A stretch of DNA of 64,000 nt from Candidatus Nomurabacteria bacterium GW2011_GWB1_43_19 (GCA_000999465.1 LCGB01000003.1:4252-68251); one strand, 5' to 3'; shown: positions 3,970 to 64,000, numbered from the stretch's first letter. A program made the numbers and translations. Notes: generated from the sequence alone by a model not told the origin.

Positions 3970-5500
3970 ATGTTCCTTTTATTATTTTAATGTCCGCGCC
4001 AATAGAATTCAGCCTTTCCGCAATTTCTTCATAGCCGCGGTTTATCATATAAACATTGCGGAGAATGGAAATTCCGTTCGCTCCCAACATGGAAATGAGT
4101 ATAACCATGGACGGGCGCAGGGCGGGAGGGCAGACAACTTGCGCCGGTTTTAGCATTGTTCCGCCGTTTATATAAAGACGGTGGGGATCAGCAAGCGTTA
4201 TATCCGCTCCCAAGCGATTTAATTCGGTTAAATATATAGCGCGATTCTCATAAACCCAGTCGTGAATCATCGTTTGACCTTTTGCGCGTATTGCAATCGG
4301 AACAAAAAACGGCAAGTTATCAATGTTTATTCCCGGATAGGGGTTGGAGTGCAATTTATCGTGAAGAGCTTTCAGCTTGCTTGGGAGTATTTCCACATCC
4401 GCCAGTTTTGTCCGGCCGTTGAATGAGTTATATATTTTCGATATTTTGTATTTTAAATTCATTCTTTTTAATTTTTCAAGTTCCAGAGACATAAAATCTA
4501 TCGGCACACGGGTGACTTTAAGTCGGGAGTCTGTGACGATACAAGCGGAAATAAACATCATCGATTCTATCGGGTCTTCGCTGTTCCAATATTCGATATT
4601 TTTATTGATTTCTTTTATCCCGTGGACGGTCAGGTTGGCGGTGCCGATGCCGTCAATTTTTACTCCCAGCGCTTCCAGAAAAAAACATACTTCTTGTACC
4701 ATGTAATTGGCGCTGGCAAAACTTATTTTGGTAGTTCCTTCAATCAAGGCGGCGGCCGTGAGGACATTTTCACAGGCGGTATCTCCCGATTCATACATCA
4801 CTACATCTTTCGGCTTCAATTTTTTTGCGGTTATTTCGTAGTTTTTGACGGTCGTTTTTATTTTTACTCCAAATCGCTCAAGCGCGTAAATATGCGCGGC
4901 TATAGTGCGTTTTCCTAAGTGGCAACCATGCGCATGCGGGATAGAAAAGGAAGATAATTTGTGGATAAGAGGACCCATTAGCATAACAACGGAACGTGTT
5001 TTTAGGGCCGATTCTATATTAATATTTTCCAGGTTAAATTTGGCGGGTGGAGTTATTGTCAGTGTGTTTTGGTTAAGCCACTTTACCGCGACTCCGATAC
5101 TTTCCAAGATTTCAATTACCCGAAAAACTTCTTCGATCTTGGCGATGCCGTGCAGGGTCGTCGTCCCGCTGTTTATAAGCGAGGCGCACAGGAGACCGAC
5201 GGAGCCGTTTTTTGAAAAGTTGGTTTTAATCGTTCCGCTTAATTTCTTGCCGCCGTTCACTTGGAAATCAATGGAATCATTTATGGAAATAATCTGGTGG
5301 TCGAGAACATTGCTGATCTTTAAGAGAAGCTCGGTTGTAAAATTTTGTTCGCCTTTTTCCATACGGGGGATGGAGCTCTGTGATGTGTTGAGCGCTTTAG
5401 CGAACTCTGCCTGTGTCATCCCGCGATGTTCACGGAGTTCCCGGATAAAATACCCTATTTTTTCCTGCTCGGTTTGCACCGTTTCTTTTGTTTTAGTCAT
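3962..5500 (-). CDS. murA: UDP-N-acetylglucosamine 1-carboxyvinyltransferase with N-terminal HTH (XRE-type) domain fusion
   Basis: Residues ~15-70 (IRELREHRGMTQAEFAKALNTSQSSIPRMEKGEQNFTTELLLKISNVL) look like HTH_XRE. The rest is the MurA/EPT fold (GGKKLSGTIKT..., C-terminal NRGYEEIAERLNSIGADIKI). Single uninterrupted 512-aa ORF. Confidence 0.8.
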   Translation of the reverse strand: MTKTKETVQTEQEKIGYFIRELREHRGMTQAEFAKALNTSQSSIPRMEKGEQNFTTELLLKISNVLDHQIISINDSIDFQVNGGKKLSGTIKTNFSKNGSVGLLCASLINSGTTTLHGIAKIEEVFRVIEILESIGVAVKWLNQNTLTITPPAKFNLENINIESALKTRSVVMLMGPLIHKLSSFSIPHAHGCHLGKRTIAAHIYALERFGVKIKTTVKNYEITAKKLKPKDVVMYESGDTACENVLTAAALIEGTTKISFASANYMVQEVCFFLEALGVKIDGIGTANLTVHGIKEINKNIEYWNSEDPIESMMFISACIVTDSRLKVTRVPIDFMSLELEKLKRMNLKYKISKIYNSFNGRTKLADVEILPSKLKALHDKLHSNPYPGINIDNLPFFVPIAIRAKGQTMIHDWVYENRAIYLTELNRLGADITLADPHRLYINGGTMLKPAQVVCPPALRPSMVILISMLGANGISILRNVYMINRGYEEIAERLNSIGADIKIIKGTYV

Positions 5501-8241: not shown

Positions 8242-10542
8242 TTATTCAATTTTTTTAATTTTATGCGGATTATGCATTGGACAGCTTTTATTTGAGCAAC
8301 GTTCGGGAATTGTTTTTGTGCCTTCCATCATTAAACTGCCACATTTTTCGCATGTTCGGCCCGTCGGCTTGGCTTTGATTGCGAATTTACAGTCCGGATA
8401 GTTAGAGCAGGAATAAAAGATACCGAAACGTCCGCGCCGTTCGGAAATGTCGCCCTTCTTACATAAAGGGCAGGTGACACCAGTGCGTTTCCTCGCTTCC
8501 TCGGCCTCGTCTTTTTTTATGAATTTGCATTTCGGATAGCGCGAGCAAGCGATGAATGTGCCGGAGCCGTCACGCCTCTCTTTGATGACCAGCTTGCCGT
8601 GTTCCTTCTCCTTTTTTCCTCGCCTTGCCGAAGTCTCGGACGAAGGCAGGTCTCCGCACAAAGGGCACACCTCACCAGTTTCTTTGGGTCCCTCTAGTTC
8701 TTTTCCGTCCAGCATCAGCGCGCCGTCACAGTCGGGATATTTGGAGCAAGAGTAAAATTTTCCTCCGCGCGCAAGTTTGATTATCATCAAACTGCCGCAT
8801 TTTGGGCATTTGATGGTTTTTGGGGCGTCGCCCAGATTAGTCGCTTTTTCCAGTTTTTCTTTTGATTTAATGTCTTTGGAAAAAGGAATGTAAAAATCCT
8901 TCAGCGTTTTCTCGTATTCGCGTTCCCCGCGGGAAATTTCGTCAAGTTCGTCTTCCATTTCGGCGGTGAAAGTGTCGGAAATATAATTGGCAAAATGCTT
9001 TTCCAGAAAATCCGAGACCACTTCGCCGACATCAGTGGGAAATAATGTTTTGCTTTCTTTTTTTATATACCCGCGTTCTTCGATTGTCCGCATAATAGAC
9101 GCATAAGTGGAAGGCCGACCGATACCCCGCTGCTCAAGTTCTTTAATCAGTCCCGCTTCGCTGTATCTCTCCGGCGGTTCGGTAAATTTTTCCTCGCTGG
9201 AGAGACCAAGTAGTTTTAATTTTTCTCCCTCTTTACACAAAGGCAGTTCCACGTCATTCCCGCGGGCGCCTTGATCGACAGCCAGCCATCCCGGAAAAAG
9301 CAAGCGTGAGCCGTTGGCCCGGAAGTCCGGGATTTCCCCACATGTCAGACATGTGGGAACCACATGTCTGACATGTGGGAACTCAACACGGGCGGTAATT
9401 TTTGTCTTCAGCAGTTTCGCGTCGGCCATCTGCGAAGACACGGCGCGTTCCCAGATGAGGCGGTAGAGGTGGTCTTGATCGTCGTGGCTCGTGTGCAGTT
9501 TGTCTATATGGGTGGGCCGGATGGCTTCATGCGCTTCTTGGGCGTTTTTTGATTTTGTTTTGTAAATTCTTCCTTCGGCATATTCATTTCCGTATTCCTT
9601 TTTTACGAAAGACAAAATTTGGGCCCGCGCGGCGGCGGATAAATTGGTGCTGTCGGTTCTCATGTAAGTAATGTGTCCCGCCTCATAGAGTTTCTGAGCT
9701 ATCTGCATCGTGCGCGAAGGGGAGTAGCCCAGGCGCGAACTGGCGGTCTGCTGCAGAGTGGAAGTGGTGAAAGGCGCGCGCGGCGAATGTTTCTGTTCCG
9801 ATTCTTTGACTCCGCTTATCAGCCAGGCGCCGGATTTTCCCGCCTCCATTATTTTTTCTACCAGTTTTTCGTCCCGAGGTTCTTCCGAGCATTCTAGAGT
9901 AATTTTTTCTTCTCTTGCTGTTTCAAACAAGCCCAGAATTTTCCAGAATTTTTCCGGAATAAAAGCGCGGATTTCCCGCTCGCGTTCCATTATTATGCGG
10001 AGGGCAGGGGACTGGACTCGTCCGGCCGAGAGCCCGTACCTGACCTTTTTCCAGATAAGTCCCGAAAGGTCGTAGCCGACAAGGCGGTCAAGCACCCGGC
10101 GCGCCTCTTGCGCTTTGCGAAGAGCCGTATCAATTTTCCGCGGATGCTTTAACGCTTCTTCCACCGCTTCTTTGGTAACTTCATAAAAAGTCACCCGTTC
10201 TATCGGGGCCCTGATCTTTTTATCCTGCTTTAAGAGGGTTTCTATATGCCAAGCGATGGCTTCTCCTTCGCGGTCGGGATCGGTTGCCAGGATTATTTCA
10301 CCGGCTTTTTCGGCGAGCATTTGGAGTTCATGCACGATTTTTTCCTTGCCTCTCGAAATCTCATAATGTGGAATAAATCCGCCTTCTATGTCTATGGCTT
10401 TTTTGTTTGACTTCGGCAGGTCGCGGATGTGCCCGACGGATGCGCGCACGGTAAACTTGTCCGCTTTCAGGGCAGACCCGTCATTCAGATATTTTTCAAT
10501 AGTTTTCGCTTTCGACGGCGATTCCACAATCAATAACTTCAT
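8242..10542 (-). CDS. topA: DNA topoisomerase I with C-terminal multiple zinc ribbons
   Basis: Toprim N-terminus MKLLIVESPSKAKTIEKYL, active-site Tyr region GRPSTYAS and four C4 zinc-ribbon repeats. It carries an in-frame palindromic insert at 9334-9382. Confidence 0.95.
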   Translation of the reverse strand: MKLLIVESPSKAKTIEKYLNDGSALKADKFTVRASVGHIRDLPKSNKKAIDIEGGFIPHYEISRGKEKIVHELQMLAEKAGEIILATDPDREGEAIAWHIETLLKQDKKIRAPIERVTFYEVTKEAVEEALKHPRKIDTALRKAQEARRVLDRLVGYDLSGLIWKKVRYGLSAGRVQSPALRIIMEREREIRAFIPEKFWKILGLFETAREEKITLECSEEPRDEKLVEKIMEAGKSGAWLISGVKESEQKHSPRAPFTTSTLQQTASSRLGYSPSRTMQIAQKLYEAGHITYMRTDSTNLSAAARAQILSFVKKEYGNEYAEGRIYKTKSKNAQEAHEAIRPTHIDKLHTSHDDQDHLYRLIWERAVSSQMADAKLLKTKITARVEFPHVRHVVPTCLTCGEIPDFRANGSRLLFPGWLAVDQGARGNDVELPLCKEGEKLKLLGLSSEEKFTEPPERYSEAGLIKELEQRGIGRPSTYASIMRTIEERGYIKKESKTLFPTDVGEVVSDFLEKHFANYISDTFTAEMEDELDEISRGEREYEKTLKDFYIPFSKDIKSKEKLEKATNLGDAPKTIKCPKCGSLMIIKLARGGKFYSCSKYPDCDGALMLDGKELEGPKETGEVCPLCGDLPSSETSARRGKKEKEHGKLVIKERRDGSGTFIACSRYPKCKFIKKDEAEEARKRTGVTCPLCKKGDISERRGRFGIFYSCSNYPDCKFAIKAKPTGRTCEKCGSLMMEGTKTIPERCSNKSCPMHNPHKIKKIE
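9334..9382. repeat. Palindromic element, ATGTCWGACAT family, tandem pair inside topA CDS
   Basis: TTTCCCCACATGTCAGACATGTGGGAACCACATGTCTGACATGTGGGAA. In-frame in topA, where it translates as ...FPHVRHVVPTCLTCGEIP.... Confidence 0.8.
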
Positions 10543-56321: not shown

Positions 56322-57560
56322 CTAAAGCTCGTCTAAATTTAGAAATATGTGCCCCATTTTATTACGCTTTGTGATAAGGTAATTTTTATTATATTCGTTT
56401 GATTTTATTTCTATCGGAACATTCTCTACAATTTCAAAACCATATCCCGTAAGACCAGCGCGTTTTTTGGGATTGTTTGTCAAGAGACGAATTTTAGAAA
56501 CACCCAGATCCCTCAAAATCTGCGCCCCAATGCCGTAGTCCCTTTCATCCATTTTGAAACCAAGTTTCAAATTTGCTTCTACCGTGTCAAAACCTTGTTC
56601 TTGTAGTTTGTAAGCTTTTAATTTATTTAAAAGACCTATTCCTCTGCCTTCTTGATTCATATATACAATCACACCCTTACCTGCAATACTTATGAGCTCC
56701 ATCGCCCTCTCAAGCTGAGGTCCGCAGTCGCACCTAAAAGACCCAAAAACATCTCCAGTAATGCAAGAAGAATGCATCCGCACCAAAATAGGTTCGTTTT
56801 CCCCCCAGACACCTTTAACCAAAGCCAGATTTTCTTCGCCCGTATTTTGGTGGCGATAGATGTAAAGATTAAAATCTCCCCATTTTGTTGGCAATTTTAC
56901 TTGTACTTCTTTTTTTATAAGAGTCTCTTTCTTTAATCTATAACGTATTAAATCTTCTATGCTAATTATTTTTAATTTAAATTTTTTTGCGATTTTAAAT
57001 AATTCCGGCAGCCGCGCCATCGCGCCATCTTTCTTCATAATCTCTACCAGAATACCTGCCGGCTCCATACCCGCCAAGCGCGCCAAATCTACAGCCGCCT
57101 CCGTATGCCCGGCTCTTCTTAAAATTCCACCGTCCATGGCTTGAATAGGGAAAATATGCCCTGGTCGGCCAAGATTGTTGGGTTTTATTGAAGGATCAAC
57201 TAAAGCTTGTATTGTCTTTGCTCTATCATGAGCAGAAATACCTGTTGTACAACCGTGTCCAAGCAGGTCAACTGAAATAGTGAAAGATGTGGAATGAAAA
57301 GACGTATTTTTAGAAGACATCATAGGAAGCTCCAGCTCTCTACACCTCTCTTCTGTAAGAGATACACAAACGAGGCCACGCCCATGGGTTGTCATAAAAT
57401 TGATTATTTCGGGTGTCGCATTTTTAGCAGCCGTTACAAAATCTCCTTCATTTTCGCGATTTGCGTCATCCACTACGATTACAATTTTGCTGGACTTTAT
57501 GTCTGAAATAGCGTCTTCTATAGAATTTAATTTAAATTCAGTTTTTTGATTTTTTTTCAT
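56322..57560 (-). CDS. ribBA: Bifunctional 3,4-dihydroxy-2-butanone-4-phosphate synthase / GTP cyclohydrolase II
   Basis: [12 protein letters not shown] (DHBP synthase) and [20 protein letters not shown] (GTP cyclohydrolase II zinc site). Confidence 0.9.
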
Positions 57561-58003
57561 CTTAATAAAACAAGTTCAAGCGCAGCCAAGGATGCTTCAC
57601 CTCCGACGTGAATTCTTTTTCGGGCTTGTTTGATATTGTTTACTGTAAGCACTCCGAAGCCAACAGGAATGCTATCTTCAATCATAACCTTCAAAACGCC
57701 TTCTTGTGCCATTTTGCAAACATAATCAAAGTGTGGCGTTTCTCCACGAATTACGCACCCAAGCACCACTAGAAAATCATATTTATTAGTTAATGCCAGT
57801 TTGTGTAAAGCAAAAGGAAGTTCAACCGAACCGGCAACATGTACTGTTCTTATATTTTTTTCAACCACTCCGCTTTTCTTTAAGGCAGACAAAGCAGACT
57901 TTAAAAGTTTTTCAGTAACTTCACTATTCCAACGAGCCAGCACAATCCCAGCTTTCAACTCTTTGCCATTTAAATATTTAATCTTTGTATTTTTTACTTG
58001 CAT
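57557..58003 (-). CDS. ribH: 6,7-dimethyl-8-ribityllumazine synthase
   Basis: GIVLARWN and a GETPHFDYV-like motif. Confidence 0.9.
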
Positions 58004-58565
58004 GCGCGTATTTGGCTAGTATATCAAATTCTAAATTAACAAAATCACCCTTTCTTTTATGTTTAATATTTGTATATTTCAAGGTATGTGGAATAATTTT
58101 GACAAAAAAAGAATTTTTTGAAATTCTTGTAACGGTTAAACTGACCCCTTCTACTGTGACTGCTCCCTTGTAAACTAAAAATTGTCTGAAATTTTTAGCG
58201 GGTATTTTTATTTCAAATACTTGTGAATTTCCCTCTTTTCTTATATTTAGTATTTCACCCTTTCCATCAACATGTCCAAGCACTATATGCCCGCTTATGC
58301 TGTCACCCAGGCGCATTGATGGTTCAATATTTACTGTATCACCTTTCTTTAAAAAACTTAAATTGGTAAGACTGAGAGTTTCTGGCATATATTCAAAAGA
58401 AATATTTTTATTTAACTTTTTAACAGTAGAACAGACACCATTTACGGAAATACTTTCTCCTAATTTTACCTTTCCCAGAGTATTTGCAATATCCAAAGAC
58501 ATTCCGCCATGGGCGGATTTTATGTTTTTAACTTTTGCAGTTTTAGAAATTATACCTGTGAACAT
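57978..58565 (-). CDS. ribE: Riboflavin synthase alpha subunit
   Basis: MFTGII...G.SI.V.GVCST N-barrel, duplicated in the C-barrel (GHIVLGHVDG). Confidence 0.85.
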   Translation of the reverse strand: MFTGIISKTAKVKNIKSAHGGMSLDIANTLGKVKLGESISVNGVCSTVKKLNKNISFEYMPETLSLTNLSFLKKGDTVNIEPSMRLGDSISGHIVLGHVDGKGEILNIRKEGNSQVFEIKIPAKNFRQFLVYKGAVTVEGVSLTVTRISKNSFFVKIIPHTLKYTNIKHKRKGDFVNLEFDILAKYAHASKKYKD

Positions 58566-58885
58566 ATTTTTAAATCTTCCTCAATCTGTCTTATTAACTC
58601 TTCTTCAGTATTAAATTTTTTATAATTTCGTAAAAATTCTTTAGTTTCGAGTATAACTGTATTGCCGTAAGCATCTCCACTATATCCAAGCAAATGCACT
58701 TCCACTTTACCGCTAGGGTTTATGAGAATACCCGCTCTGTAACTTTTATTGTTCATTATCGCATTTCCGGTATACACCCCAGCAGGAGGCAATGTGTCGC
58801 TAGTTTCTAAATTCACCGTCGGAAAACCAAGCTTCTTGCCATAGCCATCCCCTTTTATCACCTTCCCAGAAAGTATATAGTGCAT
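58550..58885 (-). CDS. Riboflavin kinase domain protein (monofunctional flavokinase-like)
   Basis: GDGYGKKLGFPTVN matches the RibF C-terminal kinase motif (G.G.G..LGFPTAN). There is no FAD-synthetase domain. Confidence 0.65.
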   Translation of the reverse strand: MHYILSGKVIKGDGYGKKLGFPTVNLETSDTLPPAGVYTGNAIMNNKSYRAGILINPSGKVEVHLLGYSGDAYGNTVILETKEFLRNYKKFNTEEELIRQIEEDLKICSQV

Positions 58886-60788: not shown

Positions 60789-61568
60789 TTAATAATTTAA
60801 GTTCTTTAAGAAATTAATCAGGGTTTGGGGATTGTTTGTGTTTGATTTTTGAATCAGCTTAATTAAGCTGCTCCCGATGATTACCCCGTCAGCCCCGTTT
60901 ATTTTTAGTTTTTTAACTTGAGATAAATTTGATATTCCGAATCCCACGGCAATAGGTAGCCTGGTCTGCCGTTTTATTTGTTTAATATATTGCAATGTCT
61001 TTCTGGGTATATCCTTCTGAGTCCCTGTAATTCCCACCACAGAGGTCAGATAAAGATATCCTTGAGCAACTTTGGTAATTTTATTTAGCCGGCGCGGAGT
61101 AGTCGTAGTTGCAATCAAATAAATATTATCAATATTGTATTTCTTAGCTGCTTTCAAAAATATGCTTATTTCTTCAAAAGGCACATCGGGAATTAAGACG
61201 CCGTCTATACCAGCATTACGCGCATCGCGGTAGAATTTTTCTATTCCACGCTGATATACTAAATTTGCATACACTAAGACCGTAATGGGGATTTCGGTGG
61301 TTAGTCTAAGATTTTTAATGAGTTCAAATACTTTGCTTGTTGTTGAACCGGCTTTAAGGGCAACCTGATCCGCTTTTTGTATTACGGGTCCATCCGCCAA
61401 AGGATCGGAATAAGGAAAACCGATTTCCAACAGGTCGGAATGTTGAGAAAGAACTTTTAATATTTTTAACGACTGGCTAAAATTAGGAAATCCCGCAACT
61501 AAAAATGGCATCATGGCCAGTTTCCCTTCTTTTTTTATATGTGTAAATGCGGTTTCGATTCTGTTCAT
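60789..61568 (-). CDS. trpA: Tryptophan synthase alpha chain
   Basis: FLVAGFP, the active-site region [13 protein letters not shown] and the GFGIS phosphate loop. Confidence 0.9.
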
Positions 61569-62731
61569 ATTTTCAGTCCTTTTTCCATTTCCGGCAAATC
61601 TTTATCGCCTCTGCCGGATAAATTTATTATTATTAATTTTTTATTTGGAAGTTTTTTTGCCAACTTAAGCGCATAGGCTACCGCATGGGCCGATTCAAGC
61701 GCCGGGATAATCCCTTCTGTTTCGGATAGGTAGCGGAATGCGGAAAGGGCTTCTTCATCTGTCGCAGAAACGTATTTAATGCGTCCCAACTCGCGCAGGA
61801 AAACATGCTCGGGACCGATGCTCGGGTAGTCTAGGCCCGCAGAAATGCTGTGCGTTTCGGTAATTTGGCCGTCGGCATTCTGTAAAACAAATGACTTCGT
61901 GCCGTGCAAAATGCCTTCCCGCCCCCCGGCAAACCTAGCCGCATGTTTTCCGCTCCGAATTCCATATCCACCAGCTTCTACGCCAATCATTTTTACTTTT
62001 GAATCATTGATAAATTGATGGAATAATCCTACAGAGTTACTGCCGCCGCCGACACAAGCTACCAAGTAATCCGGCAGCCTGCCTTCCGATGATAAAATTT
62101 GGGATCGAGCTTCCCGCCCGATTACTGCTTGGAAATCTCTGACGATTGTCGGGTAAGGATGCGGACCCAGAACCGAACCTATCATGTAATGAGTGGTTTC
62201 AATATTCGTAATCCAGTCACGGATAGCTTCATTAATCGCATCTTTAAGGGTTCGGCTCCCTGATGTAACCGGGACAACTTTTGCTCCTAGCAATCTCATG
62301 CGTATTACATTGGGTTGCTGCCGCTCCATATCTACCTCGCCCATATAAACAACGCACTCCAGTCCCAGCTTTGCACAGGCCGCAGCGGTGGCAACCCCGT
62401 GTTGTCCAGCACCTGTTTCCGCAATTATTCGGCTCTTCCCCATAAATTTTGCCAAAAGACCCTGGCCAATCGCGTTATTGATTTTGTGCGCGCCGGTATG
62501 GGCCAGGTCTTCTCGTTTCAAATAAATTTTTTGGCCGGTGGCTTTGGACATTCTTTCGGCAAAATATAAGGAAGTGGGCCGTCCAATAAAATCCCTCTGT
62601 AATTTTTTTAACTCAGCCTGCATTGATTCATTCTTTTTAAATCTTTCATAAGCTTTTTCCAACTCTAAAAGAGAAGGCATTAATGTCTCCGGTACGAACT
62701 GTCCGCCAAATTTTCCAAAATATGATTTCAT
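61565..62731 (-). CDS. trpB: Tryptophan synthase beta chain
   Basis: GRPT..Y.AE...[19 protein letters not shown]-lysine region and GGGSN. Confidence 0.9.
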
Positions 62732-62811
62732 GTGTATGTAATCTTAAAATAAATATAGCGGGTAGGCAACAATTCGGATTCCTCCGCCCTGTTGCCTGCC
62801 GCTTGAGATGA

Positions 62812-62976
62812 TCACAGTCCGTTCGGACTGTTGAAGATCAGCGTATACTGACCTTCCTTCCATGGAACGACGAGCATCACGCCCACCGCGACCCAGCCCT
62901 TCACTTTCTCTGGATCTTCTCCGGTAGCTTGTGCATGGTCGGCCACCGCTTTTGCCACCTGTACGTCCTTGCTCAT
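62812..62976 (-). CDS. Hypothetical 54-aa GC-rich small ORF between trp leader and trpB
   Basis: MSKDVQVAKAVADHAQATGEDPEKVKGWVAVGVMLVVPWKEGQYTLIFNSPNGL. The RBS AAAAGGGGTG is spaced 5 nt from the ATG. It is in the same frame as the upstream small ORF, separated by one TGA plus one codon. About 55% GC versus ~40% in the surroundings. Confidence 0.35.
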   Translation of the reverse strand: MSKDVQVAKAVADHAQATGEDPEKVKGWVAVGVMLVVPWKEGQYTLIFNSPNGL

Positions 62977-62979
62977 CTG

Positions 62980-63180
62980 TCACCCCTTTTCTGATTTGGT
63001 CGCCAGGAGGATTTCACCGTCCCTGACCCTGATGGGGACGAGTTGCCCTTCAGCTACCATGCTGAAGATAACCTCGATTTTCGTTCCAGTGGATGCGCTG
63101 TGACGTTTGATCGCCCCAGCCAGATCCTTTGCGGTAACAGGTTCCCCCGTAGTCGCAACTTGGAGTTTAACGATTTGCAT
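62980..63180 (-). CDS. Hypothetical 66-aa GC-rich small ORF, first gene after trp leader
   Basis: MQIVKLQVATTGEPVTAKDLAGAIKRHSASTGTKIEVIFSMVAEGQLVPIRVRDGEILLATKSEKG. There is no confident homology. The faint TRAP/dodecin-like beta-rich pattern is speculative. Confidence 0.35.
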   Translation of the reverse strand: MQIVKLQVATTGEPVTAKDLAGAIKRHSASTGTKIEVIFSMVAEGQLVPIRVRDGEILLATKSEKG

Positions 63181-63392
63181 GGTTTTTTCTCAAAGAACGA
63201 CCGGCAATTTGGTTGCGCCGGTACAATGAACAAACAGCGCACTTTATGTGCGCTGTTTGGTGGATTCCTTGGAATTAGTTTCTAGTGATTAGTTGTTAGG
63301 GGTTGGTAGAAATCAATGAAAGAGCGCACAAGAGAATTTGCGCTCCACCAATAGTTTAATAATTTATTTGTTTGTAAATTTCTCAATATCAT

Positions 63393-63414
63393 CATACTAG
63401 TATGCTAGTATATG
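63393..63414. promoter_or_regulatory. TrpR-type operator-like site (CATACTAGTATGCTAGTATATG) upstream of trp leader/trpBA
   Basis: It contains two CTAG cores 8 bp apart, as in the E. coli trp operator (ACTAGTtaACTAGT), and embeds the perfect palindrome CATACTAGTATG. Confidence 0.55.
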
Positions 63415-63443
63415 TAAAAATAAAAAGCAAGGGCACTATTTGC

Positions 63444-63731
63444 TTATCTGTGGATAACTTTTAAAGCCCTTCTAAAACCGCCTTCTTTCTTCCGCATTTC
63501 ACGGGAACCTCTGGTAATCGTAGCCACCCCCACATGCAAATTCTCCGCAATGGCTATGTGGTGCTCCCCTTTCCCGAGACGTTTGACTATTTGCCACCTG
63601 ACTCCCACATTTTCAAATTCCCTTGGCGTCAATATGTCCCTGATAAAATCGGCAAGGAGTTGCTTGTCTTTCGCGATTTTATGAATCACTTCAATTACTT
63701 CTTTTTTATATTGATCAATATTATTTTTCAT
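63444..63731 (-). CDS. Trp-repressor-like DNA-binding protein (TrpR/YerC/YecD family)
   Basis: LTPREFENVGVRWQIVKRL...HHIAIAENLHVGVATITRGSREM matches the Trp_repressor fold pattern. CTAG-containing palindromes flank it on both sides. Confidence 0.7.
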   Translation of the reverse strand: MKNNIDQYKKEVIEVIHKIAKDKQLLADFIRDILTPREFENVGVRWQIVKRLGKGEHHIAIAENLHVGVATITRGSREMRKKEGGFRRALKVIHR

Positions 63732-63752
63732 AATATTCTCTATATTATACTA

Positions 63753-63774
63753 CCATACTAGTATGCTGACATAT
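63753..63774. promoter_or_regulatory. Second TrpR-type operator-like site (CCATACTAGTATGCTGACATAT) in the trpR-like gene promoter
   Basis: It shares the 14-mer CATACTAGTATGCT with the site at 63393. It lies between the trpS stop and the trpR-like start. Confidence 0.55.
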
Positions 63775-63788
63775 TTGCTTGTAAAATT

Positions 63789-64000
63789 TTAATACACATC
63801 CACCCCAATTTTTTCCCGGACTTCTTCCATCTTTGCATTAGCGACTTTTTTAGCTTTTTCGCCACCTTCTTTTAAGATTTGCAGGGCTCGCGGAATATCT
63901 TTTTCAAATTTTTTCCGGCGTTCGCGGAGCGGCGCGATGAATTTTTCCAGATCTTCAATCAGAAGTTCTTTCAGTTCTTTATATTTTCCCGCCTTGCTTT
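63789..64000 (-). CDS. trpS: Tryptophanyl-tRNA synthetase, C-terminal fragment (5' part beyond window)
   Basis: The minus-strand translation ...ELKELLIEDLEKFIAPLRERRKKFEKDIPRALQILKEGGEKAKKVANAKMEEVREKIGVDVY* matches the TrpRS C-terminal anticodon-binding helix region. Confidence 0.7.
   Translation of the reverse strand, partial: SKAGKYKELKELLIEDLEKFIAPLRERRKKFEKDIPRALQILKEGGEKAKKVANAKMEEVREKIGVDVY

Follow-up and report, generated by a model that had tools for sequence, protein, structure and literature searches.

The 64-kb window analysed here, by which we mean the whole stretch of DNA at its full length, comes from Candidatus Nomurabacteria, a tiny-genome groundwater bacterium of the candidate phyla radiation (CPR), and between positions 60789 and 64000 it carries a small tryptophan locus. 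Every gene in this interval lies on the minus strand, in the 5' to 3' order trpS (3' end, for tryptophan--tRNA ligase, TrpRS), trpR (a Trp-repressor-family regulator), two small open reading frames (ORFs), trpB and trpA (the two subunits of tryptophan synthase). In the window trpR is thus followed by an intergenic regulatory region and then by trpB and trpA; our subject is this region together with trpR itself, which probably form a tryptophan-sensing cassette. The features of the locus, in coordinates of the window, are as follows.

63789 to 64000, minus strand: 3' end of trpS (tryptophan--tRNA ligase), with the stop codon TAA at 63791-63789; the remainder lies past the window end
63744 to 63772, minus strand: promoter-like site of trpR, with -35 ATGTCA (63772-63767), a spacer of 17 nucleotides (nt) and -10 TATAAT (63749-63744); 10 of 12 consensus matches
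63754 to 63765, unstranded: putative operator site 1, CATACTAGTATG, an exact match within the spacer of the trpR promoter
63444 to 63731, minus strand: trpR, Trp-repressor-family gene of 95 amino acids, PF01371 at 61.2 bits
63402 to 63430, minus strand: putative promoter of the leader unit, with -35 TTGCTT (63430-63425), a 17-nt spacer and -10 TAGCAT (63407-63402)
63385 to 63415, unstranded: putative operator site 2, ACATATACTAGCATACTAGTATGATGATATT; CTAG cores lie at 63405-63408 and 63397-63400, and ATGA at 63389-63392 is a third, degenerate core
63282 to 63395, minus strand: predicted leader peptide ORF of 37 codons, MMILRNLQTNKLLNYWWSANSLVRSFIDFYQPLTTNH, with tandem Trp codons at 63350-63345
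63224 to 63360, minus strand: putative attenuator RNA, covariance model 75 bits, E=6e-13, the sole match in the window
63190 to 63221, minus strand: extra hairpin CCGGC...GCCGG (63221-63201) and the motif GTTCTTTGA (63198-63190), preceding the first downstream ORF
63180 to 62980 and 62976 to 62812, minus strand: small ORFs of 66 and 54 amino acids (ORF66 and ORF54), between the attenuator and trpB
62760 to 62800, minus strand: stem-loop GGCAGGCAACA ... TGTTGCCTACC with a U-rich tail, from RNA folding, between ORF54 and trpB
61565 to 62731, minus strand: trpB, tryptophan synthase beta subunit, 388 amino acids, TIGR00263 at 628 bits against a cut-off of 392
60789 to 61568, minus strand: trpA, tryptophan synthase alpha subunit, 259 amino acids, TIGR00262 at 280 bits and PF00290 at 272 bits

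The scores of trpB and trpA exceed the NCBIfam equivalog cut-offs by a wide margin, and the two genes share 4 bases where trpB ends. Of trpS the window contains the final 69 codons, and this fragment of 69 amino acids scores 34 bits on TIGR00233, matching its C-terminus. On the parent contig (MFWL01000004.1 of NCBI assembly GCA_001786405.1, our locus L001), which has the same protein set and of which 20 kb were read, the complete gene (8975-9943) encodes 322 amino acids and reaches 273 bits against a cut-off of 177; the annotation there is tRNA-synt_1b. These matches bear out the names given to trpS, trpB and trpA in an earlier account of the locus made without database searches (hereafter the sequence-only reading). 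The gap between trpS and trpR is 57 nt, and 263 nt of non-coding sequence separate trpR from the first small ORF. Searches with the TrpE and TrpG proteins of relatives (tblastn) found neither trpE nor trpG in the window, and the 20 kb read from the parent contig contain no trp genes beyond trpB and trpA. For comparison we assembled 58 related loci (numbered L001 onwards), 34 of them from one scan of species-representative genomes, with labels that are nearly all Nomurabacteria, Paceibacterota or Patescibacteria, and 24 from metagenomes.

The regulator, named in NCBI as a Candidatus Nomurabacteria protein, matches Pfam PF01371 (Trp_repressor) over residues 11-91, far above the gathering score of 27. 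It scores 44.2 bits on the TrpR equivalog model TIGR01321 and 20.8 bits on the YerC/YecD model TIGR02531, the latter value lying under its cut-off of 42.2 as well as under the TrpR score. A profile of 16 relatives reaches the E. coli TrpR structures (E=6e-8 over 71 residues) with 36 bits, against 19-24 bits for YerC-like PDB chains. The recognition helix reads GVATITRGS here and GIATITRGS in E. coli TrpR (where IATITRGS spans I79-S86). In the E. coli protein the corepressor, tryptophan, is held in a pocket by Thr44, Arg54, Arg84, Gly85 and Ser88; the regulator has Thr35, Arg45, Arg74 and Gly75 aligned to the first four of these, and all four are invariant in the 16 relatives. Taken together, the PF01371 match, the higher score for TrpR than for YerC and the nearly unchanged recognition helix with the four kept pocket residues argue that the regulator belongs to a divergent TrpR subfamily and is not of the YerC type, while it is not an equivalog by the NCBI criterion. 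The TrpR/YerC label of the sequence-only reading can thereby be narrowed: the hidden Markov model search confirmed the Trp_repressor family, and the YerC side of the label falls away (21 against 44 bits). The TrpR proteins of related Nomurabacteria are 73-89% identical for most loci and 51-67% for the most distant.

An AlphaFold model of the regulator as a monomer has six helices with a mean pLDDT of 72. In a Foldseek search of the PDB with this model the best 15 matches were all E. coli TrpR, with weak statistics (E ~0.04, TM score 0.48) because a monomer was modelled for what is an intertwined dimer, which superposes poorly. We therefore did not accept the structure search as proof of the fold, even though its matches were all TrpR. 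PDB entry 1trr was among the best matches in both the profile and the structure searches.

The two putative operators flank trpR. The perfect 12-bp palindrome occurs exactly twice in the 64 kb, at 63754-63765 and 63393-63404, and allowing 2 mismatches adds one more match, at 940. The sequence-only reading had pointed to a repeated 14-mer and to CTAG cores 8 bp apart at the second site. Both copies of the 14-mer, CATACTAGTATGCT, are indeed there (63393-63406 and 63754-63767), within 1 base of the coordinates it gave, and CTAG-N4-CTAG has a single occurrence in the window, at 63397-63408. Among ~290 kb of related loci, every match to the motif with no more than one mismatch adjoins trpS, trpR or the leader, and none was found elsewhere in the ~350 kb searched (window plus related loci). 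The motif is therefore not a genome-wide repeat, an explanation that the same reading had named as fatal to its proposal.

Both sites overlap -35/-10-like hexamers in a promoter scan. Site 1 lies 28 nt 5' of the trpR ATG, and in relatives it extends into a palindrome of ~26 bp with the consensus ATATCAGCATACTAGTATGCTGATAT. Its equivalents are present in 14 of 35 loci, at 19-45 nt upstream of the trpR ATG in 13 of them and at 3 nt in L017, and the loci that have it are those with a gap between trpS and trpR. Site 2 lies 40 nt after the trpR stop and covers the -10 and the presumed start point of the leader promoter. It is kept behind trpR, in sequence and in position, in about 30 of the 34 genome loci irrespective of the downstream gene, and also in those from metagenomes; the consensus is TATATACTAGCATACTAGTATG(A/C)TGATATT, with the degenerate third core 8 bp further on. 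The operator itself differs between clades, reading GTACTAGTAC in a deeper clade (L031-L034) and ATACTAGTAT in the main clade, and the residue at the position of E. coli Arg69 (Ile59 in the window protein) is Arg only in L031-L034 and Ile, Gln or Thr in the main clade. In E. coli, Arg69 contacts the outer G of the operator. This joint change is the best available evidence that the palindromes are TrpR binding sites.

No TrpR operator was found within the 75 bp upstream of trpS on the parent contig, nor before trpS in the loci where trpS and trpR overlap, so trpS itself does not appear to be under TrpR control. Family membership, promoter overlap, the conservation of both sites, the CTAG spacing and the change at the Arg69-equivalent residue together make autoregulation of trpR plus control of the downstream unit the best reading of the two sites, in agreement with what the sequence-only reading had suggested.

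Across the loci, TTGCTT or TTGACT stands at a fixed 17 nt upstream of TAGCAT or TATCAT, and L034 has TTGACA-17-TATCAT. We infer TTGCTT-17-TAGCAT, in preference to TTTACA-16-TATGAT, to be the leader promoter of the window. The A of the leader ATG, A63395, is then the 7th nucleotide past the -10 TAGCAT. Because the sequence before this ATG is operator and leaves no room for a Shine-Dalgarno sequence, the leader mRNA is probably leaderless, with its first codon inside the operator.

The start codon of the leader consists of the last three bases of the operator palindrome, and in 26 of 26 loci this ATG is in frame with a tandem UGG UGG. The spacer between them ranges over 12 to 27 codons in 13 distinct lengths that are all multiples of 3, and over the AT-rich stretch of the 26 loci there are 0 stops in the leader frame compared with 90 and 65 in the other two. 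In 24 of the 26 the ORF is closed by an in-frame stop that is conserved within GTTGATTTC and kept also in two loci where the loop of a hairpin (P1, below) is 9 nt longer. These regularities suggest that the leader is translated. The L007 leader, like the window copy, reads on to a later UAG.

Some copies of the leader carry a CUAG/CUAA repeat insertion with a period of ~7 nt in the loop of helix P2 (63275-63300 on the minus strand of the window, and in L004, L007, L009, L024 and L026). The insertion puts stops in all three frames, and the window leader ORF ends at one of them; its period is 7, unlike the 8 bp of the TrpR operators. In L031 (4345-4520) the operator and leader-start region is doubled around a run of N, probably an artefact in the assembly of a metagenome-derived genome.

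Behind the tandem Trp codons lies a conserved RNA structure. Leader copies were located with a covariance model, which replaced loose sequence anchors, and the consensus structure was obtained with RNAalifold on 19 copies. P1 pairs the sequence just past UGGUGG (region 1) with UUUUGCGCY (region 2); P2 joins two distant segments, GAUUUCUU:AAGGAAUC; and regions 3 and 4 make up a third, GC-rich helix, a hairpin with a U-run behind it. In the window, region 1 lies at ~63345-63338 and region 2 at ~63330-63322, P2 pairs 63314-63308 with 63270-63262, and the terminator hairpin occupies 63259-63231 ahead of UUCAUUG, with a 12-bp stem according to a terminator scan. Of the cells in the three consensus helices 93% are paired, and the terminator shows compensatory CG/UA and GC/AU changes. 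An alternative helix between regions 2 and 3 is 87% paired, its closing pair being CG seven times, UA six times and UG five times. When region 1 was masked and region 4 not yet made, ViennaRNA returned the 2:3 helix together with P2.

The covariance model finds one strong match per locus in 30 of the 34 genome loci, and a metagenome scan with the leader motif gave the 24 further loci, with trpR upstream in 20 and not detectable in the other four. GTTCTTTG follows the terminator in nearly all loci. Rfam searches gave no match better than chance in positions 62700-63800 of the window with E allowed up to 10, and no match at the gathering score in 8 related loci. The coding frame, the alternative structures and the specificity of the covariance model point to a ribosome-read attenuator of the TrpL type, apparently a sequence family separate from the Rfam Trp_leader. 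Of the two halves of the system it tells us more, and the sequence-only reading had mentioned it only as a 'leader'. A candidate long-range helix, UUGGUGG:CCAYYAA (63345-63351 with 63256-63263), was set aside: it is 86% paired, shows no compensatory change and does no better than shuffles. The CCAYYAA sequence is nonetheless conserved between P2 and the terminator, and is complementary to the Trp codons and their 5' U.

From these elements we consider it likely that the locus holds a two-layer tryptophan-sensing cassette of the kind known from the E. coli trp operon, in which repression by TrpR is combined with leader-peptide attenuation. In the first layer TrpR, presumably as a dimer loaded with tryptophan, would bind the palindromes built on TACTAGTA, whose CTAG cores are spaced by 8 bp; autoregulation would come from site 1, which sits between the two hexamers of the trpR promoter, and site 2 would cover the -10 and start point of a second promoter just past trpR. 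In the second layer the transcript would probably begin at the A of the operator ATG and encode the 37-codon leader with its tandem Trp codons. Under scarcity of charged tRNA-Trp the ribosome would stall on UGG UGG and cover region 1, leaving regions 2 and 3 to pair, stacked under P2, so that no terminator forms and the polymerase reads into the genes behind, which we call the cargo. With tryptophan plentiful the ribosome would move on, regions 1 and 2 would pair, regions 3 and 4 would form the terminator, and transcription would stop. The cargo of the window would be the two small ORFs and trpB-trpA, which would make tryptophan from indole and serine. Tryptophan as the ligand, binding of TrpR at both sites, the leaderless start and the co-transcription of trpBA all enter this scheme as presumed steps.

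The company that the cassette keeps in relatives bears on what it controls. trpS stands immediately upstream of trpR in 32 of 34 loci, often overlapping it, and trpB or trpBA follows trpR in only 7 of 34. The leader terminator directly precedes trpE in L012 and trpB in L020, L031 and L035; the cassette precedes trpE-trpG in L007, and in L022 with a small ORF in between; and where trpBA follows, a small ORF intervenes in L006, L017 and L026, several ORFs in L027 and two small ORFs in the window. Since it is found before trpE, trpEG, trpB and trpBA, the cassette is tied to tryptophan synthesis. Its other cargo includes an Asp/Glu-racemase-family gene, a pyruvate-phosphate-dikinase-like enzyme, proteins without a family and Trp-rich micro-ORFs. 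On this comparison the conserved module is trpS–trpR–operator–attenuator with a variable cargo, trpBA being one of several, and control of trpBA in this particular genome is suggested by synteny. It is conceivable, and we say so tentatively, that trpS–trpR–operator–leader serves in Nomurabacteria as a fixed platform for expression under tryptophan starvation into which cargo has repeatedly been swapped.

Several observations weigh against the two-layer scheme and deserve to be set out together. The regulator stays below the TIGR01321 cut-off of 67.25, and at the position of the pocket residue Ser88 of E. coli TrpR it has Glu78, so that 4 of the 5 pocket residues are kept. A generic promoter scan lists TTTACA-16-TATGAT (63418..63391) instead of the promoter that we prefer, and transcription would then start downstream of the leader ATG. 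The window leader is without the conserved in-frame UGA and runs 23 codons more, to a UAG in the P2 loop. Equilibrium folding of the full-length leader gives the terminator form every time, also when region 1 is masked; the switch must therefore be kinetic, and we rejected such folding as a test of it, given that only a prefix without region 4 yields the 2:3 antiterminator. In many relatives the cassette precedes genes without a known link to tryptophan. Finally, ~660 bp separate the attenuator from trpB in the window, a distance that includes the two small ORFs and a strong U-tailed hairpin, and trpBA may escape the regulated promoter.

This last point underlies one rival explanation, in which repressor and attenuator are real and control only the two small ORFs here, trpBA being transcribed from an unregulated promoter of its own behind the hairpin at 62800-62760. 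In its favour are that hairpin, between ORF54 and trpB, the hairpins at the same position in L026, L006 and L017, and a weak TTGCCT-17-TAAGAT just before the trpB ATG, albeit under the scan threshold. The terminator scan, however, did not call the 62760-62800 hairpin, whose loop is long (~19 nt); everything from the leader to trpA lies on one strand with short gaps; and in the relatives already named trpB (L020, L031, L035) or trpE (L012) comes directly after the leader terminator. We regard this explanation as unlikely. Much more so, in our judgement, is the proposal that the palindromes are terminator or stabiliser hairpins or the remnants of mobile elements, with the TrpR-like protein acting elsewhere or in the manner of YerC. 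The extended site 1 is a 26-bp palindrome able to fold as a hairpin just past the trpS stop, the regulator does fall short of the TrpR equivalog cut-off, and many relatives have no trp gene near trpR. Yet the core of the palindrome is a loop-less 12 bp with no U-run, both palindromes sit on -35/-10-like hexamers, the CTAG cores have the 8-bp spacing of the E. coli trp operators, the outer base of the operator co-varies with the Arg69-equivalent residue, and the motif is confined to the surroundings of trpR in the ~350 kb.

Scarcely more probable is a conserved RNA that no ribosome reads, which would sense uncharged tRNA-Trp in the manner of a T-box or bind a TRAP-like protein, with the ORF incidental. 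The single-stranded stretches UGUUCUGUUGAUUUCUU and AAGGAAUCCAUUAAG of the leader are unusually conserved and there is the extra helix P2; UGGU/UGGC immediately 5' of P1 offers a conceivable pairing partner for the GCCA end of tRNA-Trp; and CUAG/CUAA repeats occur in the P2 loop of some copies. Against this stand the lack of a T-box or any other Rfam match even at E up to 10 and the nature of the stretch before UGGUGG, which is AT-rich and variable and offers no Stem I or specifier loop. Moreover, in all 26 loci the leader frame runs uninterrupted from the operator ATG to UGG UGG, its indels all being multiples of 3, and the in-frame stop further on is kept despite the 9-nt longer P1 loop, which is hard to explain without translation. 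We accordingly rejected a T-box or other known RNA family for this element, the missing Rfam match and the length-variable coding stretch ahead of UGGUGG both telling against it, and we retain the ribosome-read attenuator.

The stretch between attenuator and trpB has further peculiarities. The products of ORF66 and ORF54 match no Pfam or NCBIfam family, and the stop of the former and the start of the latter are only 3 nt apart. A homologue of ORF54, 49% identical, occupies the same position in L026 (4621-4767) and L054 (6001-6147), and other relatives have unrelated small ORFs of 50-70 amino acids at the spot of ORF66 and ORF54. A stem-loop between the post-leader small ORF and trpB is also found in L026 (~4780-4830), L006 (~4703-4740) and L017 (~4760-4795), its position being conserved and its sequence not; the one at 62760-62800 may terminate transcripts, mark a site of their processing or act as a further regulatory element. 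Several relatives have a strong Shine-Dalgarno sequence and a very short, Trp-rich ORF after the leader terminator (L027:4586-4615; L004:4583-4615; L024:4543-4569; L018:4416-4442; L014 ~4370-4415). The peptides are MWWPWFWWI, MLWDIEEWFI, MLWDPEWC, MSLWDDWW and MGWSSLDDWWCLGL, and they could represent a second Trp-sensing step or be made only under Trp limitation.

Other differences among the relatives concern the genes on either side of the cassette. The TrpRS beside trpR in L006, L024, L025, L026, L028, L032 and L035 is 31-41% identical to that of the window, suggesting that a different type of TrpRS fills the same position in those seven loci; it may be related to the archaeal-type TrpRS of CPR bacteria (PMC5370408). 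Downstream, genes of the Asp/Glu/hydantoin-racemase family occur in L016 (from ~4372), L005 (4812-5534) and L007 (6874-7146), that of L016 directly after an operator (4328-4340) and without a leader; a role in the use of D-tryptophan or a related compound would be a guess only. A family-less protein of ~369 amino acids is encoded directly behind the cassette in L013 (4560-5669), L025 (823-1923) and L036 (4600-4866), followed by a histidine-phosphatase-like gene, and another of ~258 amino acids in L021 (4584-5360) and L032 (~4450 onwards). Both are candidate members of a Trp regulon. In the window itself, a riboflavin gene cluster lies just downstream of trpA, next to aspS (56322-58885, minus strand), with genes for a DHBP synthase/GTP cyclohydrolase II, lumazine synthase, riboflavin synthase and a flavokinase-domain protein, which exceeds the biosynthetic repertoire that one would normally look for in genomes of this small size.

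In most of its parts the proposed cassette resembles the E. coli trp operon. The repressors are of the same family, with nearly identical recognition helices; the operator follows (G/A)TACTAGT(A/T), has its CTAG cores 8 bp apart and overlaps the -10; the repressor gene has an operator of its own; and tandem Trp codons stand beside region 1 of a set of 1:2, 2:3 and 3:4 hairpins that ends in an intrinsic terminator. The E. coli trp operators likewise have CTAG cores 8 bp apart and are bound by TrpR in tandem. Unlike in E. coli, the leader start codon lies here inside the operator, without room for a Shine-Dalgarno sequence and probably on a leaderless mRNA, and the leader has 28-44 codons rather than 14. 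An additional conserved helix, P2, tops the antiterminator, and there is no match to the Rfam Trp_leader. Moreover, trpR adjoins its target and trpS, whereas in E. coli it is elsewhere in the genome, and the cargo is trpBA only, and variable among relatives.

In gene order (trpR, intergenic region, trpB, trpA) the locus recalls the trpRBA operon of Chlamydia trachomatis, which also belongs to a reduced genome, has a TrpR operator at the trpR promoter and a second, intergenic promoter, and makes tryptophan from scavenged indole (PMC7755916, PMC6504234). The intergenic region of Chlamydia, however, is run by the iron repressor YtgR, and its annotated TrpL is atypical, without tandem Trp codons, and unvalidated (PMC7755916), whereas here the intergenic region has a second TrpR operator and what looks like a canonical attenuator with two adjacent tryptophans. 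The linkage to trpS is found here and not in the Chlamydia operon. Leaderless leader-peptide attenuators have been described as polycysteine short ORFs in mycobacteria (bioRxiv 10.1101/834739) and in Deinococcus deserti (PMC4007540). As in the present case, a short ORF at the 5' end, enriched in codons of the sensed amino acid, controls the downstream operon in these Actinobacteria and Deinococcus systems; lineage and amino acid differ, and here the leaderless start is deduced from promoter spacing and the start codon falls in the operator.

Within the CPR, a trp repressor gene linked to a TrpRS gene has been noted, and regulation by tryptophan availability suggested, by Mukai et al. 2017 (PMC5370408). 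That work described an operon of tRNA-Trp(A73) and an archaeal-type TrpRS headed by the repressor gene, and reported no operator motif, leader or attenuator. In our loci, by contrast, trpS precedes trpR and the regulated promoter would come after trpR. Beyond that brief remark on repressor and TrpRS we found no description of an operator, a leader or trpBA regulation in CPR, Patescibacteria or Nomurabacteria in the literature, our coverage of which was incomplete. The novelty claimed in the sequence-only reading stands accordingly for the lineage, for which no CPR description was found, and not for the salvage logic of a repressor over trpBA, which is known from the trpRBA operon of Chlamydia trachomatis (PMC7755916). 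The mechanism would be an ordinary, textbook one; it is the lineage that is new and not the principle.

The value of the locus lies in this lineage and in its testability. Bacteria of the CPR cannot be grown alone, and to our knowledge their gene regulation is almost wholly uncharted. Here a complete regulatory circuit can be read from sequence, comprising a repressor with its operator motif, a promoter, a leader and an RNA switch supported by covariation. If the mechanism holds, tryptophan would be sensed at two levels, translation would be coupled to transcription, and the supply of tryptophan, probably as indole or tryptophan from a host or the community, would be a limiting resource for these organisms. 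The variable cargo also yields a small set of uncharacterised genes with a probable link to tryptophan. Should the more tentative idea of a fixed starvation platform also prove true, these cargo genes would be new players in obtaining or sparing tryptophan in these host-dependent bacteria, and the attenuator would constitute direct evidence of transcription-translation coupling on leaderless mRNAs in the CPR.

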